Source: Candidatus Dojkabacteria bacterium
GTDB taxonomy: Bacteria > Patescibacteriota > Dojkabacteria > J137
Reading direction: 5' to 3'
Assembly: GCA_030950485.1 (NCBI GenBank)
Contig: JAUZRK010000015.1
Span: forward strand, 2,010 to 66,009
Length of the DNA: 64,000 nucleotides
A model generated the notes under the pieces. It saw nothing but the letters and a program-made list of their open reading frames with translations, made no database searches and had not been told where the DNA came from. Shown piece by piece: positions 10,057-42,412 of this stretch (positions are counted from its first letter, which is position 1; every line of letters begins with the position of its first letter). A program made the position numbers and the translations under genes.

Positions 10057-10111
10057 TTAGGCTGCAAATAGAGCAGTGGCGCCAATATATAGTAACATGG
10101 TATAATAGCCT

Positions 10112-11013: not shown

Positions 11014-11018
11014 GTCTT

Positions 11019-12027: not shown

Positions 12028-12051
12028 CCTCCCAGAAATGGGAGGTTTTTT
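12028..12051 (+). terminator. Rho-independent terminator
   Basis: CCTCCCAGAAATGGGAGG hairpin followed by T6. Confidence 0.6.
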
Positions 12052-12077
12052 ATTACTTAAATTTTAAAATATAACAA

Positions 12078-13178: not shown

Positions 13179-13195
13179 AACTTTAATTAAAAACT

Positions 13196-15565: not shown

Positions 15566-15669
15566 ACTCTTCAATAAATTTTAATAGTAACTTAGATACT
15601 TTGTTTAAGTTACTTTTTTGTAACATTAGATCCTTCCTAACTTCAATCACAGTTGACTTGCTTTTAGCC

Positions 15670-16080: not shown

Positions 16081-16084
16081 ATCT

Positions 16085-16471
16085 CTATAAAGCTCTATTA
16101 GAATCGACTAATGATCTATGTATGTTAAAAAAGCCAACTGCCCAATCTAAATTATTGTCCTCAATATGTTTAAGTAATATTCCTATAAAGGCACTTAATC
16201 CAATATCCCTAGTTTCAACTCTTGATAGAGCGTCAGTTAATTCTTCTTCAGTTTGCAGATTTAAATATAGTAATACTGGCTTAGGTATTCTGTATCCTGA
16301 ATGGGGAAAGATTAATAAAGTTTTTGGGTTTTTAATAAATTTTAATTTTAGGATTCTTCCAAACGATTCACTTAAATCTTCGAAGTTATCGGAAACTTTG
16401 AAATCATCTAAATAGCCAAGATATTCAGAGTTAGTTTTTAGTACTTTCTGTTCAATTTTTTGTAAGTTCAT
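16085..16471 (-). CDS. Hypothetical protein
   Basis: 128-aa ORF. Possibly the N-terminal half of a split gene together with 15670..16080. Confidence 0.35.
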   Translation of the reverse strand: MNLQKIEQKVLKTNSEYLGYLDDFKVSDNFEDLSESFGRILKLKFIKNPKTLLIFPHSGYRIPKPVLLYLNLQTEEELTDALSRVETRDIGLSAFIGILLKHIEDNNLDWAVGFFNIHRSLVDSNRAL

Positions 16472-16506
16472 AAGGGTATTATATGAAGAATAGGGGAAAG
16501 TTAAAA

Positions 16507-16543
16507 GTCAAAAGTCAAAACTCAAAACTCAAAACTCAAAACT
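16507..16543. repeat. Heptanucleotide tandem repeat (GTCAAAA x2, CTCAAAA x3.3)
   Basis: Directly read. Lies 36-72 bp upstream of the start codon at 16471 and just 3' of rnpB. Confidence 0.9.
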
Positions 16544-16642
16544 ATTCTTACTACAAGTTACGATAAACTAAAGCATAATTACAAATTATAGAATCATTTG
16601 TGCAATCAACTATTTATTTGTAACTATGCCTGGTTTATTTTT

Positions 16643-17010
16643 TTATCCATTCAATAAGCCGAATCCTGTCTCCCGATAAATCGGGATGGAAATCATCTAT
16701 CTATGCGTTGGTTAAATCAACTTGCTCTAGGTAGGGGTTACCAGCACTCTTTTGTTACCAGAAGAGCCGGTGGTCTCTTACACCACCATTTCACCATCAC
16801 CATATACCAAGGTACATGGCAGTATTTTTCTGTTGCCCTCTTAGATTCCTCGATGAGTTTATACCCTAAGATTGCTCCCAGCCTCTTTTTCTACTAAGCA
16901 TAAAGCAAGTAGACTTTAAGGTACCTATCCCGTTATCTATAAGACATACGGGACCGAAATAGAGTTCAGACTTTCCTCTCAATTTAAATTTTTAAACGAG
17001 CGATTTCCTA
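16643..17010 (-). ncRNA. rnpB: RNase P RNA, bacterial type A
   Basis: On the minus strand: GAGGAAAGUCUGAAC (CR-I/P4), GGUGAAAUGGUGGUGUAAGAGACCACC (CR-II/III, P10-P12), ACAGGAUUCGGCUUAU (CR-V/P4). A 10-bp P1 stem UUAUCCAUUC/GAAUGGAUAA closes the molecule. About 368 nt. Confidence 0.8.
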
Positions 17011-17373
17011 GAATGGATAAGGTTATTATATCATTTTTATTGTTTGGGGTTGGTAAGATTACTGATAGCTTTTAAATGTTTCGTAGCAAGATACAACTAT
17101 GATTCAGTTTTCTAGTGTAGTGTCGAGTGCCTGAAGCGGAGCGGAAGGTGTCTAAACGGAGTAAAAGTGAAAGGAGTCAGGAGTTGAATGAACTTTGTTA
17201 ATGTTAAGCTATTCTCAAAAGATTTTGGAACAGGTGACAATCCTGTTTCAGCTTGAGAAAAAATATAATTAAGGATCTGAGGAAATCAGTTAGATCTGTG
17301 TTCTATTGTGTTCAGTTCTACTCTAGTGTTAACCCTGAATCACGCTTCGTTGTTCAGGGATTCTTGAACCAAA

Positions 17374-18030
17374 TCAACTAAACCTAGATGGAATAAAGAA
17401 CTTGATGATTTTATCTAACATATCAAGAGGGTATTCAAAAACTGTATACTTTAAATCTTCCTTTAAAGCCTCAGCACGAGCTACTTCAACTTCATCTAGA
17501 TCTAGCATATCTCTAGCATTTTTATGAACTTCTCTTAATGCTAGCTCAAACATACTATATGCGATTAATGAAATCAGTATACTAAGTGTCTGAATAGCTA
17601 TCGCTATATAGATCAATATATTTTGAAACCCTGAGGGGATAAATGACACTCCAAAAAAAACTAGCTCTATAAAAAATAGAAAGTTCTGAAGAGTTGAAAG
17701 ATCTCTTAATTTATTATGTTTTTTCTTTGTAAGTTCAAGTTGAAATAGTAAATAATAATTAGTAAAAAGATCGAATAGATATATTTTATTTCTATTTATT
17801 ACAATGAACTCCTCCATAGCGTAGGCAGGTAGCTCAATTTCTTCATGAACTCTTAAATTCACCTTTCCATGAACTCTAGAGTAATTCTCTAAAATAGTTG
17901 CAGCTTCTATTTGGCTACTTAAAGGGAATGAATAAGTTTTAATAAGTCCCTTTCGAACTATTAGTGCGAATAATCCACTGACTAGTTGGATTAGTATTAA
18001 AATCGCGAATATTGCTATAAATATTATCAT
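17374..18030 (-). CDS. Hypothetical multi-pass membrane protein
   Basis: 218-aa ORF with N-terminal and central TM helices. Confidence 0.4.
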   Translation of the reverse strand: MIIFIAIFAILILIQLVSGLFALIVRKGLIKTYSFPLSSQIEAATILENYSRVHGKVNLRVHEEIELPAYAMEEFIVINRNKIYLFDLFTNYYLLFQLELTKKKHNKLRDLSTLQNFLFFIELVFFGVSFIPSGFQNILIYIAIAIQTLSILISLIAYSMFELALREVHKNARDMLDLDEVEVARAEALKEDLKYTVFEYPLDMLDKIIKFFIPSRFS

Positions 18031-18081
18031 GGTATCATTTTATAGGTTCGTAACTTAACTAACAAGAACTAAACTTCTAAA

Positions 18082-18796
18082 ATGAATAAATCTCTAATAA
18101 TTAAAGAACTTAAATCATATTCAGATAAAGAATCATCAAAGACATCTGAGATTTTTTTATAAAGCATTCAAAGGCGGATACGGCGAGGGTGATAAGTTTA
18201 TAGGAGGTTTAACTGTTCCACTACAAAGAAAAATAGCGGAGAAATATTACAAAGATCTTACTTTGGAAGATATTGCTGAAATGTTAAATTCAAAATTTCA
18301 TGAAATAAGATTTACTGCGACCGAGCTACTAAAATTTAAATATAATTCTAGTAAAGAGATTACTGAAAAGGAGAAGTTAGTAAAATTTTATTTAAAGAAT
18401 TTAGATGGGATAAATAATTGGGATATAGTTGATAATTCTTGCTATAAGATTCTTGGTGATTATTTAGAAAAGAAAAATGATATAAGTATTTTATTAAAGC
18501 TTTCGGAAAGTAAGATTATGTGGGAGCAGAGGATTGCTATGGTTTCGACAATGGCGTTTATAAGAAATAACAAATTAGAGCCGACTTATCAGTTAGCTGA
18601 AATTTTAGTTAATCATAAACATGATTTAATGCATAAAGCAGTGGGATGGTTAATAAGAGAGGCTGGTAAGAGAGATATATCTAGGCTAAGAAATTTTTTA
18701 GATAAACATTATAAAACTATGCCAAGAACTGCTTTAAGATACGCGATTGAGAAGATGGGCAAAGAAGAAAGAGATAAATATCTTGGACGAAGCTAG
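18082..18796 (+). pseudogene. DNA alkylation repair enzyme (AlkD/HEAT-like repeat family) with a frameshift at a T7 run
   Basis: ATG at 18082 gives MNKSLIIKELKSYSDKESSKTSEIFL*. A shift at T7 (18152..18158) continues YKAFKGGYGEGDKFIGGLTVPLQRKIAEKYY...WLIREAGKRD, which matches the family. The ORF caller reports only 18263..18796. Confidence 0.55.
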
Positions 18797-18834
18797 TACT
18801 TACTTAATATAACGGTTCTTGATAAAATGTCGTT

Positions 18835-19362
18835 ATGAATAAAAAGAAATTTATCTATATAGTCCTTAGTTCGATCTTTATCTTTATGTTTGTAGTTATA
18901 CTATTTAGAGATGAGGCTTCGGCTCCGGTTATTGATGAAGTTGATATTCCTGAAGAAATAACTGATGAAACGCCTAGGTCTGCTTTTGATTTAATAAATA
19001 AATGGTATAAGGATAATTACGGAACCGTTTCTATACCGACTTTTATAGAATTAGAAGGTAGCATTTATAGCATTGATCTAGAAAAGGATAGCGATGTTTA
19101 TAATCTTGTTTTAAAGGATGATAAAAAAACTTTATACGAACTTAACTTTGAATCATTAGCAGAATTATATATTAATGATGCTTATCTTATCGAGGATGAG
19201 TTTATATTTTTTAATATTACTTTAGAAAAAGATTTTGAGTGTAGTGATACTGATGATAAAGAGATTTGTGTAAATTTGGCAAATAGAATATTGGGCATTT
19301 GGTATTATGATTTTACTACTGGAGAGGTTAGTAGCGTTGCGAGATTGGCGATTGTAGAGTAG
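18835..19362 (+). CDS. Hypothetical membrane-anchored/secreted protein
   Basis: N-terminal TM/signal anchor. 175 aa. Confidence 0.4.
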   Translation: MNKKKFIYIVLSSIFIFMFVVILFRDEASAPVIDEVDIPEEITDETPRSAFDLINKWYKDNYGTVSIPTFIELEGSIYSIDLEKDSDVYNLVLKDDKKTLYELNFESLAELYINDAYLIEDEFIFFNITLEKDFECSDTDDKEICVNLANRILGIWYYDFTTGEVSSVARLAIVE

Positions 19363-19387
19363 GGATAGAGATTATTTAGATGATAAA

Positions 19388-19419
19388 AGCATGAGTTTTT
19401 AGGACTCATGCTTTTTTAT
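19388..19419. terminator. Rho-independent terminator (bidirectional)
   Basis: AGCATGAGT-TTTTAGG-ACTCATGCT followed by T6. Confidence 0.65.
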
Positions 19420-19437
19420 TACTGTTTCACTAGCTGC

Positions 19438-20358
19438 CTAGAATGTTAAAGTAGAGACAAGAGTGTCTGCATCTCTTAAACTGTCAGTATCGCTAGCTTT
19501 AATACTAAATATCACAGGTAAACTAAGAGGATAGTCTCCCTCATATTTAACATTCTTTTTATTTTTACTTAACAAAGTAAGGTGAGTTTCATTAGGGACT
19601 GACTGTAGACAATATTTAACATATTCTATTCTTGTTTCGTTATAGCTACTAGGTATTAAATCTTTAGCAGAATTATAAACAGTCGCAAAATCATCATCAT
19701 TAGGAAAATAGACCCTCAAAAAGTAGCCGCTGTTGTTCTTGAATCTATACATTTTATTTTCAAGGTCTATTAAATCGTCATCATTTCTACAACTAGATAT
19801 AGCTGACCATCCAATGTTTCCAGGAATAAAGAGTAACATTTTAAGTTCTGTGTTATTTATTCTGTTTTTAAATAAAAGATAGTAATTCATTTTTGTAGAG
19901 AAATTGCCCTCTTCTCCAGAAGATTGGCTTATATCCCAGATACACTCGTAATAGGCAAAACTAAAGTTTTCTATATTAGGATTTGAATATTTAATAGCAC
20001 AATCATTTATTCTTGTAAAAGAAGCATCATCTAAAAACGCTTGTGAAAGATTTATAACCATAGCTTCACATACCTCGCTCCCGCCTTCAGTATCAAGATC
20101 ACAACTAAATAACTGATCTTCTCTTAGGTTCTCAAGAAAATCTAATTCTAGAGGCATCGCATCTGATGGCAAGAAGCTAAAGTATTCATTCTCATTATCA
20201 CTATTGTCTTTACTAATAAGCAATTGGCTTAGAAGAGCGGAGAAGAGATAAGAGACTATAAATGCTCCAATTAGCAGAACTGTTCTAGCTAAAATGATTC
20301 TTCTCCTAGTATCTAAGTGTTCTATTATGAATTTAATTTTTAATTTGATTTTCTTCAT
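19438..20358 (-). CDS. Hypothetical secreted/membrane-anchored protein
   Basis: 306 aa with an N-terminal TM helix. Confidence 0.4.
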   Translation of the reverse strand: MKKIKLKIKFIIEHLDTRRRIILARTVLLIGAFIVSYLFSALLSQLLISKDNSDNENEYFSFLPSDAMPLELDFLENLREDQLFSCDLDTEGGSEVCEAMVINLSQAFLDDASFTRINDCAIKYSNPNIENFSFAYYECIWDISQSSGEEGNFSTKMNYYLLFKNRINNTELKMLLFIPGNIGWSAISSCRNDDDLIDLENKMYRFKNNSGYFLRVYFPNDDDFATVYNSAKDLIPSSYNETRIEYVKYCLQSVPNETHLTLLSKNKKNVKYEGDYPLSLPVIFSIKASDTDSLRDADTLVSTLTF

Positions 20359-20377
20359 TAGAATTATTTCAATTGGT

Positions 20378-21067
20378 TTATCTTGCCCATTTTATAGTTT
20401 GTAAAATCTGATCTATTTCATAGTTTATAGATGGATCAAAAATTAGATCTTGTGGGTAAGAGATTTTTATCTCGTGAGTGAAATTACCTGCGGAAATTGA
20501 CCTCGTAAATTGACCAGCAAATGCATCATTAGAAGGATATGCTTCATCAATAACTATAATACTCTTATGTGAATCAGGCTTTAAAAAACTATTACTACCA
20601 TCCCCGTTCAGATTTGGAATAAGCAAATCTATCCCATCTATATTTAGGTGTCTATACATATCTACATAACCATTCTCAAGTAACCCTCCGTTCTCTAGTC
20701 CTTCAATTAATGATTTAATCTCAATTGATAAAATTACTCCATTCTTTTCTAATGTAATGACTTCTATAGTTCTGAAGTTATCACTAGTTCTTATATCTCT
20801 TCCTAGGCTCCATTCAGGTGAGGGAAATCTAACTTCAAAACTATTAACTTCAGATTTATAAAGCTTTCTATTATCAAAATTTTCCACAATAACTATATCA
20901 TTAATGTTCTCTAAATTACTTGTTGGGCTACTGGTTGGAATTGTATTATTAATGCTACTCTCGTTGTTAGGTTTATTTTCTTTATCTTCAGTTTCTAAGA
21001 AAGTAAACATTCCTAATGCAATTAATATAAGCATTAGTACTAGCAGTATTAAATATTTCCTATTCAT
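20378..21067 (-). CDS. Secreted hypothetical protein, paralog of 21123..21785
   Basis: Signal peptide. The conserved C-terminus ..IDQILQTIKWAR parallels ..IDQILLSIKWGD. Confidence 0.5.
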   Translation of the reverse strand: MNRKYLILLVLMLILIALGMFTFLETEDKENKPNNESSINNTIPTSSPTSNLENINDIVIVENFDNRKLYKSEVNSFEVRFPSPEWSLGRDIRTSDNFRTIEVITLEKNGVILSIEIKSLIEGLENGGLLENGYVDMYRHLNIDGIDLLIPNLNGDGSNSFLKPDSHKSIIVIDEAYPSNDAFAGQFTRSISAGNFTHEIKISYPQDLIFDPSINYEIDQILQTIKWAR

Positions 21068-21122
21068 AATATAAATTTAATAAACTCAGTATGTGAATTA
21101 ATTCACATACTGAGTTGTTAGT

Positions 21123-21785
21123 TTAGTCACCCCATTTAATAGATAAAAGAATTTGATCTATTTCTATTAAGATCTCTGGGTCGTAGTAATCTTGGGGAAG
21201 GTCGATAACAATATCATAATTATATTTACCAACATTAAATGCACATTCAAAAACTCCATCATTTTTTACGCTTTCATCTTTTAATCTAACTATTTGAGTG
21301 TAGGTGTATGGACCAAACTTCCCAGGTGAACCATCCCAGCCTTCTACCTTACCTCTCCATAGACTAACTCCATTAATATTTAGGTTAATACTTTCATTGA
21401 AAAATTTTTCTTGATATAAGCCTAGGCACCCTAAATCCTCTCTGTAATTCTCTATTATTATCCTTACTGAATGATTTGACTTAGACAACGTTAATTCTTC
21501 CCGTGCTTCCGATATAGTCTTGTTTAAATTCCATCCCTCATCATAAGAGATACTAAATCCAGATCTTGCACTAATAAAGTCTGGAGTTCGACCAGTAAAT
21601 ATTTGTTCGTATTCAAGATCATCAGATTGATCATCAGTCACAGGATTACTTGTAGGAGAATCAGTAAGTACATTACTATTGTTCTCTGAACTATTGCCAT
21701 CACTTTCTTCTTGCGTCAATTCAAATGTGGTAGCACTTATAGCAAATATCGCTAAGAGAATTAAAACCAAATATTTCTTATTCAT
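21123..21785 (-). CDS. Secreted hypothetical protein, paralog of 20378..21067
   Basis: Signal peptide. Shared architecture and C-terminal motif. Confidence 0.5.
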   Translation of the reverse strand: MNKKYLVLILLAIFAISATTFELTQEESDGNSSENNSNVLTDSPTSNPVTDDQSDDLEYEQIFTGRTPDFISARSGFSISYDEGWNLNKTISEAREELTLSKSNHSVRIIIENYREDLGCLGLYQEKFFNESINLNINGVSLWRGKVEGWDGSPGKFGPYTYTQIVRLKDESVKNDGVFECAFNVGKYNYDIVIDLPQDYYDPEILIEIDQILLSIKWGD

Positions 21786-21830
21786 AAAATTATTTAATAA
21801 TCAAAATTAATTAAACTCAGCACACTTGTT

Positions 21831-24800
21831 TTACCACGTGTACCAAGATGTTCCTTCATAACTAAATACACCAGCCCAGGTTCCTCCAGGTTTTGACTTA
21901 TTAATTACACTGTCCTTATTAGCAGTTCCCATTACATAAAAGTGAACTGTTCCTCCTAACTTTTTATTTCTAAACCTATATACAGCCTCTGTTCCATTTA
22001 CACAACCATTGCTATACCTATAAGATTTCCATGCTTCACCCTCGAATGTATAAGCTCCTGCCCAATCTCCTCCTGGTGCAATTTTACTTTTAAGGTTATC
22101 TCTTTCTGTGTCTCCTAAAAGATAGAAATGTGTCCCAGGGTAATGGTTGTTCCCAAACCTATAGACACTTTCTTCTTTTATTACAATTACATTAACTCTT
22201 TCTGTAACAGTATTATTTGATGTAACTGGATCATTCTGACTTCCACTAGTCTCTGCCTTAAATGTATTATAACCAGTATTATTTAGTTTTAATACAATAT
22301 CAGCTCGAGGCTTAATACCTGGCATAATTGAACTATAATTACATATAACTATCGAACCTGAAAGACTGCAACTAGATGGTTTACTAACTAAACTATATCC
22401 GCTAGGAAGAGTTAATTTAGAAACTACTCCCGTCGCTGTAATTGTTGAACTCATATTATGAGTATTCATAGACATAGTAAACTGTTCTCCTTTACTTACA
22501 GTTGTTTTACTAGGAGTTAAATAAACTCTAAGATCTACTGAACTGCTATTTGTAGGAGGTTCAACCGGCGGAACTACTACAGATCCTTTAAACTCACTAG
22601 GATTTCCGAATGCATAATAAGCAACTCTTTCATGTCTATAATTTATACTACTAAGATCTACACTTTTACCAAGATTGTAGAAGTGTGTTTGCCTACTATT
22701 TTCAGTATTAATGTATCTTTGAACTGGTGATGATCCATTGTAATCATCTTTTAAAGTCTCATCTTTAGTTGTTATCGGCGGATAAGCATAAAAAGCTAAA
22801 GCCGGATTTAAATAGTCAGGTATTGTAATAGAATTCTCAGTTGCAACATAAAGTAACGATTGATATACGTCACTCCAATATTGATAAACAGGTACAGTTC
22901 CAGTCGCTCTATTTTTAAAAGCATAAAAGGCTGTCATATCAAATCTCCAAATTGAAATACTATACTTAACCTGAATTTTATCTTTTGCATCATTTCCAAT
23001 TACGTATAGGTGAGCTGTTTGCCCCTCTATAGGTTTGTAAAATCTGTAAACTGGAGATAATCCAGTAGCAGGATCTACTTCAGCTATTCCAGTATTAGTA
23101 TGAGCTCTACAAGTCACTGCATCATCAATATAAAATATTGGTTGCCCTCCATTCCCAAGACTCCAGCTTATAGTTGGATCATCGTCATATGAATCAGGAC
23201 TGAAATTCTTCTCAGTAGTATAGAAATTTCTAAACGGACTGCTATTCTGAGTAAAAAGGTATACCGGTTTATATAAGTTATCAGGATTAGTTTTATATGC
23301 GAAACATATATTACTTTTATCAAAGTATTCCCCCGTACCAACTAAACTACCTGCTCTTTCATAATCTGCTGTAATCTCTATAACATCTCCTTGTGGTTTA
23401 TAAAGTGTATAAACTTTAAGTGGAGAATTCACCACCTCAGCTACTTCTTTCCCACCAGTTTTATATCCTCCATTACAAATTATTCCAACAGTATCTCTGT
23501 AAACGCAGAACGTATCTCGATCATCAAAGTAAATTGTATTCATTAAAAGCGGTTGGTCTCCAGGGCTTCCAAATTGAATAAGTTCTGAAGTCGAACCGTC
23601 CTTTGCTTTTATTGAAACAGCTGTATCTGTTAGTGCAATTCCTGAGATACTGCTTGTACTTGATCTTGTACTTACGCACCTTAAAGTATCAACGCTGTAA
23701 GAACATATATCGTCAAGCCCATCACTATTAATATCACCAAGAGCTAGGTATCCAAAAGGAATATTAGTCATTGGTGAACTTACAGTTCTGCTTGTATCAA
23801 TTACTCCATTTCTATTCATTGCACATTCAACTCCAGAGGTACTGTACACACATAATTCATCATATCCATCCCCATTTAAATCTCCTATCGCCGGAATACT
23901 TCCAACTTCTCCAAATTTAATTCGAATTACTCCTGGACAAATAAGCTCCCCTTCTCTATAAACACACCTCTCAGAAATACCATCACCGTTAATGTCTCCA
24001 ACTACAGGTAAATCCTTCGGATCTCCTATTTTGTTCTGGCTTTCAAAACCTATCTTACCTGGATCAGTATCACAGTAATAGTTCACTTCTTCTTCATTGA
24101 ACTTACAAAGGTCTTCATACCCATTACCGTCAATATCTTTTTTAAATACAGTTGTATATGGTAGATAAAATTTAAGTTTAAACGGTTCAGCTTTTGCAGT
24201 TAAAGTTACTCCAGAAGAGTTAGTATACTGATACTCAACTGTCCACTCAATTTCTTTGTTTACGGGGAATTGATCAATCTCTAAGAACTGAACTTCAAGC
24301 GCTGAGTTAGCATTAAATTCTTTATCACCATATTTAATTACTGCTTTTTTAACTTCCGAGTTAGTGAATCCTTCAAAATCCCAACTGAAATTTAAAAACT
24401 TCTTTACAGTATCAATATTTACAACAGAATTATCTACAGGACTCTTCAATATTAACTCTGGCGTTATTTTAAAACTAGTCTTTGCAGGATCTGTCCAAAT
24501 ATATTCATTTGTATTCCCGTTATTATTACTATCTGCTATGTCCTTGTAATATGCTGTTATATCCCAAGTTAAGTTTTTTCCTTCAATCGATGCCAAAGTA
24601 GAATAGGGTACTGAAACTGATGTTCCACTAATTTTTCCTTGATAATAGTAAGCTCCAGAAACGCTAGTTGGCCTGTCTCCACTAGCATCATAAATCCATA
24701 ACTCATAGTATCTAGTATCATTCCCGCTGCTGTTTGAGTCAGCTAAGAATTCCTCCCATTCAAATCTAATAGAGTTTCCGTCTGGTTCAGGAGTAGCATT

Positions 24801-26789
24801 TCCTATAGGAGATATAGGTTGTATCATGTTTGGAAAGTTATCTGACTTAAAGGCAATTCCACCTAAATCTACTGATACTGGCGTTCCTTTATAAACTTCA
24901 TTACAAATTGAATCGTCAGAGAATTTCTCCGAAGGATCTATAGACTTACCATATCCAGCAGAGTCTAATGTAGCTGTATCTAAGAATGTGAAATGTAAAT
25001 GGTATCCACATGTCCAGCCAGTATATCCAACTTTACCTATAATTTCTCCCCTTTTAATCTTAGTACCAGGTACTTGTAGTCTATCTGGAATACTATTTTT
25101 CATTAGATGTAAGCATATTGAAGAGGTTTGGTCATCATATTTAATTGTAACCATGTTAACTGTACTAGCATATGAGCTTGAGCAGCCACCTTGGTTCACG
25201 AATTGTTTATATATGCCATCTTCATATTTATCTGTTGCAATGTAAATAGTACCATCGGCTACAGTTGCAATTTCTTCTCCAAAACCCATACCAAAATCCA
25301 ATGCGTACTGATTATAATATTCACCTGTAACATGACTTCCGCCGTCATTTAAAAAGTCCTGACTAACCTCATGACTGATATCCCCTGGCCAAGGCAACTT
25401 ATAAGGACTCTCCTTACACTCCAAAACCACCTCGCTCTGCCCAAATCCAAAATCCAAACTATCACTAATTCCTAAAACCGTAGGGCTACTAATATCTCCA
25501 TATTGCACTAATAACTCAGAATCTACACTATAAGAATCGGTAATATCTCCATTACTTGGAACTCTAAGAATTTCAAAATGTAAGTGACAACCTTGATCCT
25601 CAAGCGGAGCCTCGGGATTATCTCTAACGTATCCAGTATTACCAACAGTACCAATTACCTGATTAGTGAGAATCTGATCTCCAACTTCAACATAAACATC
25701 CCTAAGGTGGTAATAAACAGATATATAACGATCTCCATTACTAAAAGTATGTAATATTTTTACGTAATTTCCAGGAGTATCGCTAGCACTTTCATTTCCT
25801 AAAACAACACCCTCAGTAAAAATCTCTATTATCTCTCCACCAGCAGGAGCTAAAACTTCTGTACCGCAATACAGTCCATAGTCAGTACCATTATGCAGCG
25901 TTCCATCCCTCTCTCCAAATTCAGAAGTAATCGAAACAACATACTCCTCACCAGTCTCAGGGTTAATTTGAATTTCACTATAAGGTCTTTCAAAACTAAC
26001 ACCATCCTCAGGATTTATAACAGGAGTAGAATCAAAACCCTGACATAAAAAGTTATCCAAAGTCCAACCGACAGTACCAGTTAAAGTCATAACCTGCATC
26101 CAATTATTACCTTCAGGATCAATAAAATTATCAATAAGATAAAGCGAATCACCAAGATTTAATTTATATAAAACAATACTTGAATATCTAGGAGAATAAA
26201 ATAATTCAACGCCAGCAGTATTACAAACATGAGCCTCTGTATAAGCTATGACCTCGCTTCCAACTCTAGTTACCTCCGCTAAATTACAACTACTTAACGC
26301 ACTATCAATCTGAGTATAACCAACTCTCCCGTCACTAAGTTCAGCCCTAAACCATTTAGCTCCGTTTATATCAAAAAGATATCCAGTTATTAGAACCTCC
26401 TCAGTACTTGGTAAGATAGTGATCCAATTACTAGAACTTGAAGGTGCCTGATAAATTACTAAACCACTATTTGAATTAACTAAACACGCTACATTACTAC
26501 CAATTCCAAAGTTATCATCGCCAGTATAATCAGGCAGCTCACTATCAGGATTACTTGTAAACTCCTCACCAACTAATCTAATATCAAATCTTAAAGTATC
26601 ATTATTAGACTCTTTTCCAGTTTTATCGTAAGCATCCTTAAACCAAGTCACCCCCTCATGAATAGCATCAATCTCTAAAACATAATCACCATTTTCTTCA
26701 GGAGTTAAAACTTTCAAAGTAATGTTTTTTGTATCGTTATAACTAACTCTAGAACTTAAAATCGCTCTATTATTATCTTTTTTATACAT
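21831..26789 (-). CDS. Giant surface protein (C-terminal 1652-aa segment): SH3b-like region, two M23/LytM-like peptidase domains, FG-GAP/Ca-binding repeats, repeated YRF..HFY modules
   Basis: HNGTDYG...GCHLHFEI and ...GYHLHFTF (M23 HxxxD/HxH motifs). GDINGDGISE, GDLNGDGYDE, GDINSDGLDD repeats. No signal peptide on this segment. Confidence 0.75.
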   Translation of the reverse strand: MYKKDNNRAILSSRVSYNDTKNITLKVLTPEENGDYVLEIDAIHEGVTWFKDAYDKTGKESNNDTLRFDIRLVGEEFTSNPDSELPDYTGDDNFGIGSNVACLVNSNSGLVIYQAPSSSSNWITILPSTEEVLITGYLFDINGAKWFRAELSDGRVGYTQIDSALSSCNLAEVTRVGSEVIAYTEAHVCNTAGVELFYSPRYSSIVLYKLNLGDSLYLIDNFIDPEGNNWMQVMTLTGTVGWTLDNFLCQGFDSTPVINPEDGVSFERPYSEIQINPETGEEYVVSITSEFGERDGTLHNGTDYGLYCGTEVLAPAGGEIIEIFTEGVVLGNESASDTPGNYVKILHTFSNGDRYISVYYHLRDVYVEVGDQILTNQVIGTVGNTGYVRDNPEAPLEDQGCHLHFEILRVPSNGDITDSYSVDSELLVQYGDISSPTVLGISDSLDFGFGQSEVVLECKESPYKLPWPGDISHEVSQDFLNDGGSHVTGEYYNQYALDFGMGFGEEIATVADGTIYIATDKYEDGIYKQFVNQGGCSSSYASTVNMVTIKYDDQTSSICLHLMKNSIPDRLQVPGTKIKRGEIIGKVGYTGWTCGYHLHFTFLDTATLDSAGYGKSIDPSEKFSDDSICNEVYKGTPVSVDLGGIAFKSDNFPNMIQPISPIGNATPEPDGNSIRFEWEEFLADSNSSGNDTRYYELWIYDASGDRPTSVSGAYYYQGKISGTSVSVPYSTLASIEGKNLTWDITAYYKDIADSNNNGNTNEYIWTDPAKTSFKITPELILKSPVDNSVVNIDTVKKFLNFSWDFEGFTNSEVKKAVIKYGDKEFNANSALEVQFLEIDQFPVNKEIEWTVEYQYTNSSGVTLTAKAEPFKLKFYLPYTTVFKKDIDGNGYEDLCKFNEEEVNYYCDTDPGKIGFESQNKIGDPKDLPVVGDINGDGISERCVYREGELICPGVIRIKFGEVGSIPAIGDLNGDGYDELCVYSTSGVECAMNRNGVIDTSRTVSSPMTNIPFGYLALGDINSDGLDDICSYSVDTLRCVSTRSSTSSISGIALTDTAVSIKAKDGSTSELIQFGSPGDQPLLMNTIYFDDRDTFCVYRDTVGIICNGGYKTGGKEVAEVVNSPLKVYTLYKPQGDVIEITADYERAGSLVGTGEYFDKSNICFAYKTNPDNLYKPVYLFTQNSSPFRNFYTTEKNFSPDSYDDDPTISWSLGNGGQPIFYIDDAVTCRAHTNTGIAEVDPATGLSPVYRFYKPIEGQTAHLYVIGNDAKDKIQVKYSISIWRFDMTAFYAFKNRATGTVPVYQYWSDVYQSLLYVATENSITIPDYLNPALAFYAYPPITTKDETLKDDYNGSSPVQRYINTENSRQTHFYNLGKSVDLSSINYRHERVAYYAFGNPSEFKGSVVVPPVEPPTNSSSVDLRVYLTPSKTTVSKGEQFTMSMNTHNMSSTITATGVVSKLTLPSGYSLVSKPSSCSLSGSIVICNYSSIMPGIKPRADIVLKLNNTGYNTFKAETSGSQNDPVTSNNTVTERVNVIVIKEESVYRFGNNHYPGTHFYLLGDTERDNLKSKIAPGGDWAGAYTFEGEAWKSYRYSNGCVNGTEAVYRFRNKKLGGTVHFYVMGTANKDSVINKSKPGGTWAGVFSYEGTSWYTW

Positions 26790-26978
26790 TGTAGTAGTAC
26801 CATCACTATTTAATAAAAGCCAATGATAAGAAATACTAACTGGGTTGTTAAGTCCTTCAATAACCGGGTACCAATTTAATGATCCAGTATTTTTAATAAT
26901 GAACTCTATATTAAATTCATTTGAAGTATTAAATTCAACTGGTAGATCTATTATTCCATAGTTACCACTTTCTACTTA

Positions 26979-27899
26979 TTCATCTTCTAAATATTCAATA
27001 CTATAAATAGGTATTTCAGGCAGAGTAGGAGTATCATTATCCCCACTCCCTGATCCATCTCCTGTATTAGGATCCCCATTTTCACCATTAGTCCCATCAT
27101 CAGGATTCTCTGTACTTTCTTTAATAATGAAAATTGAATCACTATAAACTTCAGAAATATTTCCAGCAGTATCTTTATACTTTACAAAAACATCAGCACT
27201 TCCAAACTCTATAGCAAAATCAAAACTCTCAAGTATGATCGAATGATTTTCTTCACCATTATCTGGAAAATTAGCCCATTCACTCCAAGTCGAAGAATCA
27301 GTGCTTATTGAGTAAGATACTGCAGTTTGAAAAATCTTAGCTTCTACAGGAGGTACGCATTCTCCAAGATAGTCACCATGTTCAAGGTGAGAATCGAGTG
27401 CATTTTCTGAAATTGTTATCTCGTATTTATTTTCTGGATTTCCATTTGGAATATGACAAATCTCAACTTTTAGTTTTTTAGTTTCTGTATCTACCTTATC
27501 ATTCTTCTTTTCCTGTCCTAAACCTTCTTCATCTGCTGGTTCAGAGGTGTTCCCCACCTCTAAATCTTTCCCATCGTCATTATCTAGACTTTCGATTTCC
27601 CCTGCTTCGTCAGTACACAAACCTAAATAATCACCATGTTCAAGATGAGAATCTAAAGCGCTTTCAGAAACTGAAATCTCATGAGCTACTTCATTACCTA
27701 GTTCGGGTTTATGGAATATTTCAACCTTACTTCCTTCTGAATCAGTTTCTGTAGTTTCTGGTAAGATCTCTTTAATAAATGAATCGTATGAATTTAAATA
27801 TATATTTACAATGCTTGAATCTGAGATTTCATCATTGCCATCAAGTGCTTTTATGTCTATAGAACCACTTGGCTTCCCTTGATCTAAAATTATTCTATC
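26979..27899 (-). CDS. Middle segment of the same giant protein, containing two HIPNGNPENKYEIT..ALDSHLEHGDYLG repeats
   Basis: Same frame as 21831..26789, separated only by a TAA at 26976..26978. A 93-codon open stretch upstream of its TTG lacks any start codon and runs back to the TGA at 27900..27902. Confidence 0.55.
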
Positions 27900-28298
27900 T
27901 CAAGATGAAACTGAGCTAATCTCGTCAACCTTAACCTCTATACAAATCTCATGTTCATCCTCGACTGTAGGAATATATCCAATTCGAGATAAATAACTTC
28001 CGCCTTCGTCTTCAAATATCTCTACCTCTTCAAATTCGCTCCATCCAGAATTATCTGAAAATTTATACTTTGCAAAACTAGGTGTAAAACCTTCGCTTAA
28101 ATAAGTTTTTGTATTTACTAAAACCTTATTTGTGAACTTATTATCTAAATAAGTATCTGAACTTGGATTTACAACTAATGAAACGGAATTAGCTGCTGGA
28201 TCAATTACTTCTTGTGCTTTTACTGCAGGTATTAAGCCAACTAATGGCGAAAGTAAAATCTGCAATAATAATATTAATGTTAATAATTTATTTTTCAT
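27900..28298 (-). CDS. N-terminal signal-peptide segment of the same giant protein (ends at an in-frame TGA)
   Basis: Signal peptide MKNKLLTLILLLQILLSPLVGLIPAVKAQE. The TGA at 27900..27902 is in frame with the downstream segments. Confidence 0.55.
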   Translation of the reverse strand: MKNKLLTLILLLQILLSPLVGLIPAVKAQEVIDPAANSVSLVVNPSSDTYLDNKFTNKVLVNTKTYLSEGFTPSFAKYKFSDNSGWSEFEEVEIFEDEGGSYLSRIGYIPTVEDEHEICIEVKVDEISSVSS

Positions 28299-28320: not shown

Positions 28321-28959
28321 CTAAATATCTAAACTAATCGATTCTCTAATAACGCTATATTCTTCAAATGACTGAATTACAAAAGATGCTTTTGATGAAT
28401 CATTATTAAAAAATACTTCAGGCGTATAGAGTACGCCTGAGTTATTACCGAATTGATCGAAAAGGTAGCTATTTAGTACCTCTCCATTTGTTAAATTGAT
28501 AATATCCACTGACCTTGGAGTAGAGTAAGCTACTTTATTATTATCAGCACTGATGCTGACTAAAACTTGATCGCTAATATTTGTAGCAAGAACTTCTTGT
28601 GTATTATTTACCAAATTAATTAAACTTATTAATTTACTATCTTTTCCAAATGTATATATTAATTTAGTATTATCATCACTTAGCTTTGCCGTTATTACAT
28701 ATTGATTGTCTGTTAAGTAATTAACAACAATTCCGTTTTCATCTAACTCAGCAATTCTCCTTGATGTACCATTATCTAAAATCGCAAAATTAGAATTACT
28801 AATTTTATTTATTTCAAAAGATATATTTGAAACCTCCTCTGAGATACCCTCCTCTGCATTCGTTCTTATAGTGAATAAAATAAGACCGTATGTTAATAAA
28901 GTAGTTACTACAAATAAGCGTACAGAGTTTTGTGATATAAATTTTTTACTTATCCTCAT
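28321..28959 (-). CDS. Secreted protein, possibly a beta-propeller (PD40/TolB-like repeat)
   Basis: N-terminal signal anchor. Repeated ...NNKVAYS.../...TKLIYT... strand-like segments. Weak call. Confidence 0.3.
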   Translation of the reverse strand: MRISKKFISQNSVRLFVVTTLLTYGLILFTIRTNAEEGISEEVSNISFEINKISNSNFAILDNGTSRRIAELDENGIVVNYLTDNQYVITAKLSDDNTKLIYTFGKDSKLISLINLVNNTQEVLATNISDQVLVSISADNNKVAYSTPRSVDIINLTNGEVLNSYLFDQFGNNSGVLYTPEVFFNNDSSKASFVIQSFEEYSVIRESISLDI

Positions 28960-29156: not shown

Positions 29157-31460
29157 CTATTTCCTCACATCATGCCCACCAAACTGGTTTCTAAGTGCAG
29201 AAACAACTTGTCCAATATAGCTAGGATTACTTTTTGAATCTATTCTAAACTGCAAAGCATCTTCAATAACCTTTACTAATATGTCGATCTCTTTTGCAGC
29301 TTCAACAGTCCATTTTCCTTCGCCGTTACTATCAACTTCGCCGGAAATATTTTCTAAAGTAACTCCATCTTGATCAAAAGCTTTTAATAACCAACCAATC
29401 AATCTAGATTGGATAACACTACCTTTATTATAAATTTCAGAAACATCTTTTAGATTTAAGTTGAAATTTGATTTTCTTAAGACCTCAAAGCCTTCTGCAA
29501 TAGCCTGCATCATTCCATATTCAATTCCATTATGTACCATTTTTACAAAATGACCAGCTCCAGCTCCTTCAAAGAACTTATAACCACAAGGGAATGATAT
29601 CTGTTTAAACAATTCTTCAGTATGTAAGAAATTAGTATAATTCCCACCAATCATTGCGCAAGCACTATTTCTAGCACCACTAGGACCTCCTGAGATTCCA
29701 ACATCAATAAAATTAATGCCCTTCTGTTCAATTACCTCATATCTTTTAATAGTATTTTTATAATTTGAATTTCCAGCATCAATTAAATAATCTCCAGGCT
29801 CTAAATAATTTATTAATCCATCTTTAGCAACTAAAACATCTTCTACCGCATCGCCAGATGGAACCATAACCCAAATAATTCTAGGTGCTTTAAGTTTTTC
29901 TACTAATTCTTTATATGAATAAGCTCCTTCTCCTCCTAATCCAACAAAATTATCAATCTTATCTTTAGACCGATTATAAGCTATAACTTTCCAACCTTCT
30001 TCTAAAAGTTGTTCTGCAATACCTTGTCCCATTTTGCCTAAACCAACTACACCTATTTCTTTATTAGTTTTGTACGTGAACTTCTCATTAATGTAGTTAG
30101 ATGATTCAATAGCCTTATCTGAGTTTTGTTTATAGGTTTCTAGAGCAACTACATTATCATCCCAAGCGTTTACAATTGGATCAATAAATCTCCATGAAGC
30201 TAATACTTCTTTAAAACTTACAAACCAGGTCTGTTTTCCATGTATTACATCTAAAATTCCAATTTTGTATTCATCTAAGTACTGCTTTCTCTCCTTTGAT
30301 TCAAGAATCTTGCATTCTAGATTATCCCCATTGGCATACGACATCATATCGAAATTTATAGATAGATTTTCTTTAGGAGGAAGATTGAATTTAATATAAT
30401 TTTCTAAATTTTCAACTCCAAGATCTTTATGTGCTTTATCTACTTCTACTTCTCTAAATGTAATTTTTACATATTTTTCTTCGCTAGGAAGTTTTTTTCC
30501 TGACTGAATAATAATAGGTACATTTCTCCATTTAGGCATATCAATATAAAACTTTATTTTAAAGAATGTTTCTTTATTAGACTTTTTGTTAACACCGTCT
30601 ATTTCTCTGTATCCTTTATACTGAGCTCTATAGGTGTTATATTTTATCTCCTCAATATTCAATATTTTAAGTCTTGAAAGTAAATCAGCTCTCGCGCTTC
30701 TAATCTCTGCTGAACTAAAATCAACAGGCTTATCCATTGTTAATAAAGCTACTATTTGCAGAATATGATTTTGTCCTACGTCTTTTAATGTTCCTACACT
30801 ATCATAGAAGGCTCCTCTAGTTTCAACTCCGAAATCTTCATTTAAAACGATTTCAATTTTCTCTATTGAATCATTATCCCAGGCGAATTTATAAATAGAA
30901 TTGAAAAATCTTAATGCAAAGATATTTCTTACAATTCCCTTATGAAGATAGTGGTCAATTAAGAAAGTTTCTTCTTCACTAAAGCATGACTCTAAGAGTC
31001 TATTGATTTTTATTGCGCTTAAAAAATCAGTTCCTATTGGTTTCTCAACTATAATCCTAATATTTGTATCTTTAAATTCACCTCTAATATTTTTTAGATT
31101 ACCGATAATATCTGAATATGCATCTCCTCTTACAGCAAGATGGAAGATAGTATTTGAAGTAGAGTTCTTTAGTATTAATTTGCTTAACTCCTCATATCCT
31201 TTTGGATCATTAAAATCAGTTGAAACAAATTCTATTATTTCAAGGAATTTTTCAGTGCTTTCGCTGTAGTTATGAAGAACTTGTGTCTTTAGATATTCTC
31301 TAAATTCTTTATTATCAAAGGTTCTCCGAGAGATTCCTATAATTTTGAAATTTTTTGAAAGCTTATTTTCTTTATATAGTTCGAAGAGGGCTGGGAGGAT
31401 CTTCTTTTTAGCAAGATCTCCAGTTGCACCAAATAAAGCGAATGTTGCTGAGTTATCCAT
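29157..31460 (-). CDS. Fused glucose-6-phosphate dehydrogenase (N-terminal) and short-type 6-phosphogluconate dehydrogenase (C-terminal)
   Basis: N-terminus has FALFGATGDLAKKK (G6PD NADP site), IDHYLHK (DHYLGK motif) and RGAFYD. C-terminus has EIGVVGLGKMGQGIAEQL (Rossmann fold) and the 6PGD signature GAGAGHFVKMVHNGIEYGMMQAIAEGF. 767 aa in one ORF. Confidence 0.8.
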   Translation of the reverse strand: MDNSATFALFGATGDLAKKKILPALFELYKENKLSKNFKIIGISRRTFDNKEFREYLKTQVLHNYSESTEKFLEIIEFVSTDFNDPKGYEELSKLILKNSTSNTIFHLAVRGDAYSDIIGNLKNIRGEFKDTNIRIIVEKPIGTDFLSAIKINRLLESCFSEEETFLIDHYLHKGIVRNIFALRFFNSIYKFAWDNDSIEKIEIVLNEDFGVETRGAFYDSVGTLKDVGQNHILQIVALLTMDKPVDFSSAEIRSARADLLSRLKILNIEEIKYNTYRAQYKGYREIDGVNKKSNKETFFKIKFYIDMPKWRNVPIIIQSGKKLPSEEKYVKITFREVEVDKAHKDLGVENLENYIKFNLPPKENLSINFDMMSYANGDNLECKILESKERKQYLDEYKIGILDVIHGKQTWFVSFKEVLASWRFIDPIVNAWDDNVVALETYKQNSDKAIESSNYINEKFTYKTNKEIGVVGLGKMGQGIAEQLLEEGWKVIAYNRSKDKIDNFVGLGGEGAYSYKELVEKLKAPRIIWVMVPSGDAVEDVLVAKDGLINYLEPGDYLIDAGNSNYKNTIKRYEVIEQKGINFIDVGISGGPSGARNSACAMIGGNYTNFLHTEELFKQISFPCGYKFFEGAGAGHFVKMVHNGIEYGMMQAIAEGFEVLRKSNFNLNLKDVSEIYNKGSVIQSRLIGWLLKAFDQDGVTLENISGEVDSNGEGKWTVEAAKEIDILVKVIEDALQFRIDSKSNPSYIGQVVSALRNQFGGHDVRK

Positions 31461-31562: not shown

Positions 31563-32786
31563 CTAAGCAGCCTGTACTATAGGTTTACCTTTACTGTTAG
31601 TATCAGATCTCTTCATAAAATCGGCTCTGTCAGATTTCTCAAAATCTCCTACTGGGCTAATATTTAATTGAGTATTGTAACTTGTAGGTAGACCTTGGGG
31701 ATCTGAAATTGTGAATACAATATTTGGTATTTGACCAGAATAATTTAAATCAGTAGGTGTAAAGGTTACATCTCCTGTTCTATTATTCACTGTGAATGTC
31801 CCGATACTATCTTCATTACCTACTTCTACAGGTGAAAAATCCTCATCTAACCCCACAGTAGTTATACCTCCAGTAAATGGAATTATATTTCCATCAATTG
31901 TAATGTTTGATAGTCTCAATTCGTTTAAATTATTGTCAACATCTTCAATTATTTCTATATTATCTTGGTCAGTGAAGGCATTAAATCTAGCTTCCTCTGT
32001 TTGATCAAAATTTAGAACCCTTCCGTTTGTTCCAAAATCTCTAATCACTTCAGGTTCATCATTAACTGAGCCAACAAAGACTCCATTAACAGCTACTGTA
32101 GTAGTTCCTCCACCAGAATCACTTACTCCAAAAACAAATCTTGGAACTTCACCATGAAAATTTAACTCAGGTGTGAAGTTTACGATACCAGTTTCTGGAT
32201 CTACCTCAATATGACCGACTATATTATTACCATCTGCGTCGTAGATTGCTACAGGTTCTTTAAAATCACTTGAAATATGAATTGTATCTTCTCCTGTGAT
32301 AACTCTAACGTCTGTGATTCTTGGGACATCTCCTTCATCAATATTTTCAACATAATCAAAGACACTTATTATAGAAGTAGTATCTTCTTCAATTTTTATC
32401 GTAGGTACGTTTTTTATTGTTGTAGGTGCGTCATTAACAGGATCTACTATTATATCTAATCTTTGAGATGCTGTTGAAATTCCGTCACTAACATTTACTT
32501 CAACATAAGGAACTGCTCCATTAAAGTTTTCAGTTGATCTAAAGAAAATATTTTCAGTTCCATTATTAACACTCAGTGTCCCAATAATTTCCCCTTTTGC
32601 ATTTAGTACCTCAATATTATTGGCACCCCCAGTTACTCCTATTGTCTCTCCATTAATTACTACATCAGTTATATTAAGAGCATCTCCACCAACATCAGTT
32701 ACATTATCAAATACATTATTTACAAAGATGTTTGTATCTTCGTTACCGGTTACCTCAATCGTGCTTATTGCTACTACGGGGCATCA
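31563..32786 (-). CDS. C-terminal segment of the VNDAP-repeat adhesin (frameshifted continuation of 32774..35578)
   Basis: The frame is open from 32783 to 31563 with no start codon. It reads ..VVAISTIEVTGNEDTNIFVNNVFDN.. directly after the ...PVNDAP* end of the upstream ORF. The GTG reported as a start is internal. Confidence 0.55.
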
Positions 32787-42405: not shown

Positions 42406-42412
42406 TAATTAA

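Follow-up and report, generated by a model that had tools for sequence, protein, structure and literature searches.

LytM/lysostaphin-type M23 endopeptidases such as MepM, ShyA/ShyC and Pgp3 share with the protein described here the PF01551 domain (present twice) and the HxxxD and HxH motifs (in domain 1). The giant M23 proteins of Dojkabacteria share with it a common order, consisting of a beta-sandwich with a Cys pair, an AGNIS beta-sandwich, an LPxYxIEY linker, an NBR1-like Ig domain, two SH3b domains, M23 and DUF5648, and are 37-39% identical to it overall and 52-57% identical in the M23 domain. Directly downstream of these giant homologues there are between one and three small genes, of about 200-220 aa. 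Ordinary bacterial nonsense pseudogenes have in common with the present locus premature stops relative to intact homologues, fragments annotated as separate hypothetical proteins, and disrupted surface-protein genes nearby. Bacterial selenoprotein genes have in common with it a UGA codon aligned with a homologue Cys, the pattern by which Sec/Cys pairs are classically recognised in sequence data.

The window analysed here is a 64 kb stretch of a metagenome-assembled genome (MAG) of Candidatus Dojkabacteria, an uncultured bacterium belonging to the candidate phyla radiation (CPR) with the standard genetic code. The gene under study occupies 28298..21831 on the minus strand, and is split in GenBank into three CDSs (MDQ6985722.1, MDQ6985721.1 and MDQ6985720.1). 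Minus-strand translation of 21831-28298 gives 2,156 codons in a single frame with stops at codon 133 (TGA), codon 441 (TAA) and the terminal TAA and no others, so that 2,154 codons are otherwise without further stop or frameshift; the off-frames of the same strand contain 159 and 353 stops. The features of the locus are as follows, in the direction of the gene.

28215..28298, minus strand: putative Sec signal peptide, MKNKLLTLILLLQILLSPLVGLIPAVKA/QE, judged by eye and by similarity to the N-terminal ends of homologues P0013-P0015
27903..28298, minus strand: segment A, 132 codons, signal peptide and most of beta-sandwich domain 1 (hypothetical protein MDQ6985722.1)
27852..28190, minus strand: beta-sandwich (FnIII/PKD/Ig-like) domain 1, spanning the TGA, with the conserved strand ...S[C]DxIIxD after the stop
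27902..27900, minus strand: premature TGA, codon 133, inside beta-sandwich domain 1
26979..27899, minus strand: segment B, 307 open codons, with an annotated 214-aa CDS from TTG 27620
27609..27728, minus strand: Cys/His mini-domain copy 1, degenerate (first Cys replaced by Phe), holding the annotated TTG start
27351..27470, minus strand: Cys/His mini-domain copy 2, KVEICHIPNGNPEN...HLEHGDYLGEC
27117..27338, minus strand: beta-sandwich domain 2, ...VFVKYKDTAGNISEVYSDSIFI, kept in 5/5 homologues
26978..26976, minus strand: premature TAA, codon 441, in the linker following the conserved LPxYxIEY
21834..26975, minus strand: segment C, 1,714 open codons, first start ATG 26789 at codon 63
26631..26969, minus strand: NBR1-like Ig domain, beginning 2-6 residues past the TAA
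26316..26468, minus strand: SH3b-like domain, weak Pfam match (E 1e-3)
25563..25898, minus strand: Peptidase_M23 domain 1, 67.1 bits (segment C residues 360-471), HNGTD and HLH intact
24978..25310, minus strand: Peptidase_M23 domain 2, 45.5 bits, HLH intact
23703..23903, minus strand: FG-GAP / FG-GAP_3 repeats (Pfam)
22833..23081, minus strand: DUF5648 copy 1 (Pfam)
22200..22535, minus strand: DUF11 (CLIPPER) domain (Pfam)
21837..22175, minus strand: DUF5648 copy 2, C-terminal (Pfam)
20378..21785, minus strand: two tandem paralogous small proteins (220 and 229 aa), directly downstream, each with an N-terminal TM segment or signal

Using segment C as query, we recovered five uninterrupted Dojkabacteria homologues (P0011-P0015, 1,559-1,888 aa) that are collinear across both stop positions. 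One homologue is a 1,863-aa protein on JAGQLJ010000002.1 (GCA_020429495.1). The uninterrupted family also includes P0020 and P0024, and at the homologue loci L084 and L085 the gene is a single ORF. Uninterrupted homologues of the kind that the original prediction had proposed to look for therefore exist and, together with the continuity of the frame, uphold its view that the three segments form one reading frame. The TGA falls at a Cys that is invariant in all five homologues (residues 693, 223, 703, 195 and 703), and TGT or TGC becomes TGA by one base change. The TAA falls at a variable linker residue, for which the homologues have Q, S, Y, P and Y; a single base separates TAA from CAA (Gln) and from TAT or TAC (Tyr). 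Segments A and B are 21-44% identical to the homologues, a level of conservation similar to the 29-43% of the non-catalytic parts of segment C. Searches with the N-terminal part behaved differently: the joined 781-aa query gave only proteins with the ICH...HGD...C motif, the scoring having covered 8,000 candidates that share most words with it, and true homologues were missed, probably for this reason. The joined N-terminus had no match in genome-contig and metagenome-contig collections, and a profile query built from the junction-domain alignment returned the window's own 132-aa fragment alone. The ICH mini-domain is present between the beta-sandwiches of homologue P0014.

GenBank presents three products of 132 aa, 214 aa (TTG 27620) and 1,652 aa (ATG 26789, MDQ6985720.1, "peptidoglycan DD-metalloendopeptidase family protein"), and it is highly improbable that these represent three (or two) truly separate genes, as this public annotation has it. 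The annotated TTG (27618..27620) is the Leu of ...HGDYLG-L-C in the first mini-domain copy and falls within the conserved HGDYLGxC end of that domain, whereas 37/37 confident window genes listed begin with ATG. ATG 26789 sits in the middle of the NBR1-like Ig domain. The Pfam N_BRCA1_IG match to this domain is weak (E 0.02); an exhaustive search with the region matched 701 proteins at E<=1e-3, many of them from query residue 2-6 past the TAA, and these matches run past the ATG at residue 63. Among the matches listed, the best-scoring stretch never begins before target residue 24. After the TGA there are 93 codons without ATG, GTG or TTG, as had been counted before, and after the TAA there are 62, one fewer than the 63 first given, compared with a start at most ~20 codons past the preceding in-frame stop in all other credible window genes. 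Credible starts after each stop, with homologues that begin there, had been named as favouring three genes; no canonical start lies directly past either stop, and none of the homologues (0) starts at either junction. Both downstream products would lack a signal peptide despite domains that are all of extracytoplasmic types, in line with the earlier claim that only the first piece carries one. The 132-aa product would miss the last core strand of its own domain.

Signals for separate expression were also sought. Inside the gene there are 15 promoter-like sites where 28.6 are expected, i.e. no excess, and no terminator-like hairpin was found in a scan of the gene. No Shine-Dalgarno sequence precedes any of the 37 confident window starts (0/37), and the ribosome-binding-site test of internal starts is therefore unusable: in a host genome without Shine-Dalgarno sequences, a missing site at the internal starts is uninformative with respect to separate genes. 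Since intact homologues are collinear with the locus, the internal starts lie within conserved domains, and the signal peptide is on the first piece only, this is, as judged from sequence, one gene rather than three, and the reading as separate genes is already largely refuted.

The domain content predicted from the letters alone was confirmed with Pfam for the two Peptidase_M23 domains, FG-GAP and the two DUF5648 copies; SH3b gave the weak match listed above, and a DUF11 domain was found in addition. A second SH3b-like domain probably follows the first. The duplicated motif reported in the original prediction is real (59 nt, 78% identity, 27364-27422 against 27622-27680), with the TTG "start" inside the first copy. 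The M23 assignment of the whole protein is clear (101 bits against a gathering cut-off of 28.7 bits for PF01551), and the Peptidase_M23 domains span segment C residues 360-471 and 556-666. In domain 1, HxxxD occurs as HNGTD (25881-25895) and HxH as HLH in HLHFEI (25569-25586). In domain 2, H-x11-D stands in place of the first Zn-ligand motif, an arrangement that may resemble LasA-type M23A enzymes. The best NCBIfam matches are MepM, ShyC, Pgp3 and ShyA; their scores are far under the equivalog cut-offs (MepM 53 bits against 341), and the protein is therefore orthologous to no named M23 enzyme. We infer a peptidoglycan-cleaving or host-interaction role for the ancestral protein.

In an AF2 model of the P0013 equivalent of domain 1, the strand E104-110, a core strand just after the TGA-aligned Cys, lies in the block of highest pLDDT, and the top Foldseek matches of this domain model are RbmA and PKD domains. 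The alignment and the model suggest that the TGA-aligned Cys and a second conserved Cys may have a structural part, as a disulfide, and not a redox one.

We ruled out an alternative code in which UGA is a sense codon (table 4 or 25), as the other long ORFs, which include ATP synthase, G6PD, amidase and iPGM, contain zero in-frame TGA codons. TGA also serves as the terminator of several window ORFs, a UGA-sense code would leave the second internal stop, TAA, unexplained, and, of the closest relatives by ATP synthase beta (<=80% identity), most are Patescibacteria with the standard code. No in-frame stop was found in any other conserved gene of the window.

The original prediction had offered stop-codon readthrough as one of its two alternatives. 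Under programmed recoding, UGA would be decoded as selenocysteine or read through by a near-cognate or suppressor tRNA; with readthrough of the UAA as well, small amounts of the full-length protein would be made and secreted. The in-frame UGA facing a Cys invariant in 5/5 homologues and the otherwise intact frame of 2,154 codons are as such a mechanism would have them. However, UAA is the least leaky stop and is unable to encode Sec, so that the second stop cannot be Sec, and the homologues carry ordinary sense codons, with neither stop conserved. Neither the UGA (z -1.1) nor the UAA (z -1.4) is followed by a stable or SECIS-like hairpin; the 60-nt fold 3' of the UGA has -8.7 kcal/mol, and 28/200 shuffles fold as well. 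No Rfam match was found in the stop region, and no tRNA-Sec or suppressor tRNA in the 64-kb window. The Cys belongs to a conserved pair within an extracellular beta-sandwich, suggesting a disulfide, and the other window genes are without in-frame stops. Given the lack of a SECIS-like hairpin and of any homologue that conserves either stop, recoding appears unsupported by the sequence, and we consider it very unlikely; the readthrough option gained no positive support from homologue codons, downstream structure or the use of two different stop codons. Its strongest form, in which the cell tolerates two genuine stops, recoding the UGA (to Sec, or through efficient near-cognate/suppressor decoding) and reading through the UAA to make a giant secreted hydrolase from the three-segment frame, is even less probable. 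If true, this would be the first extracellular CPR protein with dual stop-codon recoding or with selenocysteine.

A near-identical second MAG (GCA_030949735.1) contains both stops identically and differs from the window elsewhere. The two MAGs represent the same population, with 0 substitutions in 16 kb of sequence distant from contig ends, and the accession ranges of their GenBank proteins lie close to each other (MDQ6985xxx and MDQ7021xxx); the two MAGs may not be independent evidence for the stops. The original prediction did not raise assembly error, which is the main rival and a live one, although we consider it unlikely. The gene would then be intact in the organism, and the stops would come from uncorrected mistakes in base calling or polishing, or from the consensus of a minority strain, in two assemblies from the same or similar long-read data. 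The MAGs differ mostly by indels in homopolymers or tandem repeats and by contig ends dense in errors, as is typical of long-read assemblies. A 3-nt substitution in the second MAG places a TAG in the housekeeping gene iPGM, and there are several homopolymer frameshifts besides; in the window, two indels break a CYTH gene that is intact in the other MAG. The break of the neighbouring adhesin gene at a C4 homopolymer and the pristine state of the remaining giant ORF, as for a functional gene, are also what such an artefact would give. However, both changes are substitutions outside homopolymers, and are the same in two assemblies that disagree elsewhere. Since only 5.3% of random substitutions in the giant gene create stops, two random consensus errors that both do so are unlikely. 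At the substitution discordance of ~1e-4 per base observed between the assemblies, about 0.03-0.04 spurious stops would be expected in 6.5 kb, and without a systematic error a pair of them would be very improbable. The absence of in-frame stops from the other conserved window genes also stands against such error.

We consider that the gene is probably a recent nonsense-inactivated pseudogene, which favours the "freshly inactivated" alternative of the original prediction. Where the locus has its two premature stops, intact homologues have sense codons, and the downstream pieces are without a plausible start or targeting signal. The ancestor would have been a Sec-exported modular cell-wall hydrolase of ~2,150 aa and a member of the Dojkabacteria giant M23 family, with the order signal peptide, beta-sandwich, Cys/His mini-domains, beta-sandwich, NBR1-like Ig, SH3b-like, two M23, FG-GAP and DUF5648/DUF11. 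In the present population, two single-base nonsense substitutions would have turned codon 133, for Cys (TGY), into TGA and codon 441, in a linker, into TAA. Translation would halt after 132 residues, within the first beta-sandwich, and the downstream 2,020 codons would lack both a signal peptide and any start that lies outside of folded domains; for this reason the allele would be effectively null. Inactivation would be recent, as the frame is otherwise free of stops and frameshifts and has kept its M23 catalytic motifs. We infer that the DNA itself carries the stops and that full-length protein is not made. Two nonsense substitutions and zero indels in 6.5 kb are, however, a slightly unusual pattern of decay for a pseudogene.

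The neighbourhood was also examined. The tandem genes at 20378..21785 are paralogs, as first predicted (BLASTP E 7e-18); the label "beta-propeller-like" given to the protein at 28321..28959 was left unconfirmed, with no Pfam match. The small downstream genes of the window and of the homologue loci are of similar size and position, with no significant sequence similarity between them. A cadherin-like adhesin gene adjoining the giant gene is frameshifted, at a C4 homopolymer. The Cys/His mini-domain (~38 aa) is undescribed: PDB sequence and fold searches with it gave no meaningful match, and in the literature nothing was found on its motif string or on the assembly accession, and nothing relevant on Dojkabacteria pseudogenes.

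For annotation, the value of these findings is that three unrelated-looking GenBank CDSs are fragments of one gene, and that the 1,652-aa "peptidase" as annotated starts within a domain and is without an export signal. If the stops are real, a giant M23 surface hydrolase, and possibly the adjacent cadherin-like adhesin with it, has only just disappeared from the lineage, and the locus marks ongoing turnover of the cell-surface repertoire; giant M23 surface proteins are plausible tools for host-cell attachment or wall remodelling in episymbiotic CPR bacteria. If the stops are artefactual, the locus is a caution on substitution errors in long-read MAGs. Neither outcome alters mechanistic understanding; a recently dead gene, like a sequencing flaw, is ordinary. 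For domain curation, the uninterrupted family (P0011-P0015, P0020 and P0024) and the Cys/His mini-domain offer modest leads.

Compared with ordinary nonsense pseudogenes, the putative disruption of this gene appears very young, with 2,154 codons otherwise intact. Unlike bacterial selenoprotein genes, it has no SECIS-like hairpin, has a second stop, UAA, and places the UGA in an extracellular structural setting rather than a redox active site. The giant protein is ~5 times larger than LytM/lysostaphin-type M23 enzymes, and differs from them in its two catalytic domains, its many adhesion-type modules and its interruption. Within the Dojkabacteria giant M23 family, three homologues carry an extra DUF11-rich N-terminal region of ~600 aa, unlike the window gene, and the C-terminal halves of the homologues contain LGFP, CHAP or other modules, whereas that of the window gene has FG-GAP and a second DUF5648/DUF11 arrangement.

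Translation of the minus strand at 28298..21831 gave a single frame of 2,156 codons, interrupted only by a TGA and a TAA before its terminal TAA, with 159 and 353 stops in the remaining two frames of that strand over the same region. We refer to the pieces before the TGA, between the two stops and after the TAA as segments A, B and C.

27902..27900, minus strand: premature TGA, codon 133
26978..26976, minus strand: premature TAA, codon 441

A scan for ATG, GTG and TTG found none in the 93 codons following the TGA and none in the 62 codons following the TAA. The coordinates and three in-frame segments of the original prediction were correct, as was its start-less stretch after the TGA; the stretch after the TAA had been put at 63 codons. 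In every other credible gene of the window the start lay at most about 20 codons from the preceding in-frame stop, and the sole similar start-less anomaly was the neighbouring adhesin gene. GenBank annotates the three pieces as MDQ6985722.1 (132 aa), MDQ6985721.1 (214 aa) and MDQ6985720.1 (1,652 aa), on a 67,784-nt contig of a Dojkabacteria MAG distinct from the near-identical GCA_030949735.1.

31563..35578, minus strand: cadherin-like giant adhesin, split by a frameshift at about 32774..32783

In this adhesin, a 934-aa ORF ends in ITVTPVNDAP at TAG 32774, and the next repeat unit (VVAISTIEVTGNED...) lies in the -1 frame, where it extends over 406 codons and no start occurs for 245 codons. The break coincides with a C4 homopolymer (gat gcc ccg tag), identical in GCA_030949735.1, so either 1 nt has been lost or the homopolymer is miscalled.

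Searching with segment C identified five uninterrupted Dojkabacteria proteins (P0011-P0015; 1,559-1,888 aa), and in a MAFFT alignment all five were continuous across both stop junctions, which upheld the predicted single frame by the proposed check of finding uninterrupted orthologs. The TGA column held an invariant Cys (homologue residues 693, 223, 703, 195 and 703) within the conserved block ...(K)xIC(V)x(V)K...S-C-D-x-I-I-x-D..., so one TGY to TGA change explains this stop. The TAA column, part of a variable linker between a conserved LPxYxIEY and a conserved Ig-like domain (...KNxGxxxWYP...NPVNISYHW...), held Q, S, Y, P and Y; TAA is reachable by one change from CAA or from TAY. P0014 and the window gene share the order signal peptide, beta-sandwich, ICH mini-domain, AGNIS beta-sandwich, linker, Ig domain, SH3b and M23, and two homologue loci carry the giant gene as one ORF. 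The equivalent first domain of P0013 was modelled by AlphaFold as a beta-sandwich (6 aligned sequences only, mean pLDDT 70) with RbmA FnIII and PKD domains as Foldseek neighbours. The strand SCDQIIL, directly after the TGA-aligned Cys, lies in the best-predicted part of this model, so the 132-aa product would be without a core strand of its beta-sandwich.

When the first 340 residues beyond the TAA were searched exhaustively with HMMER, 701 proteins matched at E<=1e-3. Many matches ran from query residue 2-6 through residue ~114, indicating that the Ig-like domain begins right after the TAA and that ATG 26789 (residue 63) is mid-domain. Matches to fully collinear homologues began at target residue 290-839, and among the matches listed the best-scoring stretch never began before target residue 24. 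As predicted, the annotated TTG start (27620) falls in a duplicated motif: segment B carries two copies of ~38 aa (59 nt at 78% identity, 258 nt apart), and the TTG is a Leu codon within ...HGDYLG-L-C of the first. No Shine-Dalgarno sequence preceded any of 37 confident gene starts in the window, and all 37 of those listed were ATG with A/T-rich sequence before, a pattern implying that translation in this Dojkabacteria genome is initiated independently of SD motifs; because of this genome-wide absence, a ribosome-binding-site test is inapplicable to the internal starts. A scan inside the giant gene found no hairpin resembling a terminator, and promoter-like sites were not in excess. Neither the start scan nor the HMMER search and alignment gave credible starts or homologues beginning after the stops, which the original prediction had said would favour three genes. 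Collinearity, starts inside domains, the homologue loci and the promoter and terminator scan led us to reject three separate genes; the public annotation is a fragmentation artefact.

The alignment of UGA with Cys is the classical selenoprotein signature, and we therefore tested for a SECIS element.

16639..17020, minus strand: class A RNase P RNA (133.5 bits)

Neither the 60 nt behind the UGA (z -1.1) nor the 60 nt behind the UAA (z -1.4) folded better than shuffled sequences. Rfam found only the RNase P RNA and two tRNAs across the window, and ARAGORN found no tRNA-Sec or suppressor tRNA within it. Since, in addition, the second stop is UAA, neither stop is kept in the homologues and the aligned Cys belongs to a conserved Cys pair of an extracellular beta-sandwich, recoding is very unlikely, which tells against the readthrough originally offered as an alternative. 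The genetic code is standard, because no other long ORF of the window contains an in-frame TGA and several terminate with TGA.

Both stops were identical in GCA_030949735.1, a GenBank Candidatus Dojkabacteria bacterium MAG of the same population, although reads may be common to both assemblies. The window was 99.8-99.9% identical to its contigs, with 0 substitutions over 7,260..23,165; ATP synthase beta was at most 80% identical to that of other Patescibacteria. The two MAGs differed mostly by homopolymer or tandem-repeat indels and at error-dense contig ends, and both look like long-read assemblies. At ~16514, intergenic beside the RNase P RNA, they differ by 14 nt (2 x TCAAAAC) in tandem-repeat copy number. 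GCA_030949735.1 has an extra homopolymer frameshift in the giant M23 gene (window position 25793), others in a split ATP synthase subunit a and in a 218-aa gene (17374..18030), and an in-frame TAG in iPGM (phosphoglycerate mutase) from a 3-nt substitution, where it reads TTA (L001 6483..6485) against CAG in the window (45904..45906); the TAG and homopolymer frameshifts are evidence of consensus errors there. The window is cleaner, yet two indels break its CYTH-domain gene, for which GCA_030949735.1 has an intact 183-aa ORF; either the window assembly contains errors or the strain is decaying.

41873..42425, plus strand: CYTH-domain gene, broken in the window (A missing at 42152, A8 for A6 at 42395)

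Such flaws in both assemblies could make the stops assembly artefacts as well, but this is unlikely: both are substitutions outside homopolymers, common to assemblies that differ elsewhere, only 5.3% of substitutions in the giant gene were computed to create a stop, and 0 other conserved window genes carry one in frame. The stops are probably real nonsense mutations.

Segment C, 1,714 codons, minus strand: two Peptidase_M23, FG-GAP/FG-GAP_3, two DUF5648 and DUF11 (Pfam)
Segment C residues 360-471: Peptidase_M23 domain 1 (Pfam)
Segment C residues 556-666: Peptidase_M23 domain 2 (Pfam)

Pfam thus recovered the predicted M23, FG-GAP and DUF5648 domains; SH3 appeared as a weak SH3_3 match near the segment C N-terminus, with a weak N_BRCA1_IG match. 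Segments A and B matched nothing in Pfam or NCBIfam. The segment A N-terminus (MKNKLLTLILLLQILLSPLVGLIPAVKA/QE) is like those of P0013-P0015 and, by inspection, reads as a signal peptide. From these domain families, the intact protein would be exported by Sec, its SH3b, DUF5648 and DUF11 modules would keep it at or near a cell wall, and its two M23 domains would cut peptidoglycan cross-links. The FG-GAP and beta-sandwich modules suggest an adhesion role. In the present allele, translation would end at codon 133. The 2,020 codons beyond it would lack an export signal as well as any start outside a folded domain, and the gene therefore appears effectively null. HNGTD and HLH are both kept in M23 domain 1 and HLH in domain 2, and conservation against the homologues is about equal in segments A and B and in the non-catalytic regions of segment C. 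Apart from the two stops the frame is intact, as are the catalytic motifs, which points to a probably very recent event, in keeping with the freshly inactivated gene first proposed.

27351..27470 and 27609..27728, minus strand: Cys/His mini-domain copies, also in P0001-P0009 and P0014

This ~38-aa mini-domain (KITICHxPPGNPxN..TIxISENAW..H.AHGD..G.C) has invariant H6, H31, D33, G36 and C38 and nearly invariant C5, H28 and G32. It occurs in secreted proteins as a single copy or in arrays of 11 or more; two carriers have a Por_Secre_tail (T9SS sorting) and one is a Tol-like beta-propeller protein. AlphaFold predicted a beta-beta-alpha fold with confidence (pLDDT 94), for which the PDB gave no match; Pfam and NCBIfam gave no match, and a literature search found the motif string in no paper. 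It is widespread and apparently uncurated, and may be a metal-binding or disulfide-stapled module.

20378..21785, minus strand: two small paralogs after the giant M23 gene
L084 13603..14262 and L085 13590..15751: small downstream genes at homologue loci

The predicted tandem paralogs were confirmed (E 7e-18). In three genomes the giant gene is followed by one to three small genes (~200-230 aa, N-terminal hydrophobic segment); their proteins showed no significant similarity between genomes, and only position and size suggest a conserved partnership. Two fusions were also seen in the window, the first in both MAGs.

29157..31460, minus strand: 767-aa G6PD-6PGD fusion (G6PD_N, G6PD_C, 6-phosphogluconate-dehydrogenase-like NAD-binding, partial 6PGD C-terminal domain)
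54600..56303, plus strand: 567-aa thioredoxin, metallo-beta-lactamase and rhodanese fusion

The window gene is a member of a Dojkabacteria giant M23 family, from which it differs in its C-terminal module set and its interruption. Its NCBIfam scores were far under the cut-offs, and it is therefore an orthologue of no named M23 enzyme. Nonsense-split genes annotated as several CDSs are a known and ordinary phenomenon.
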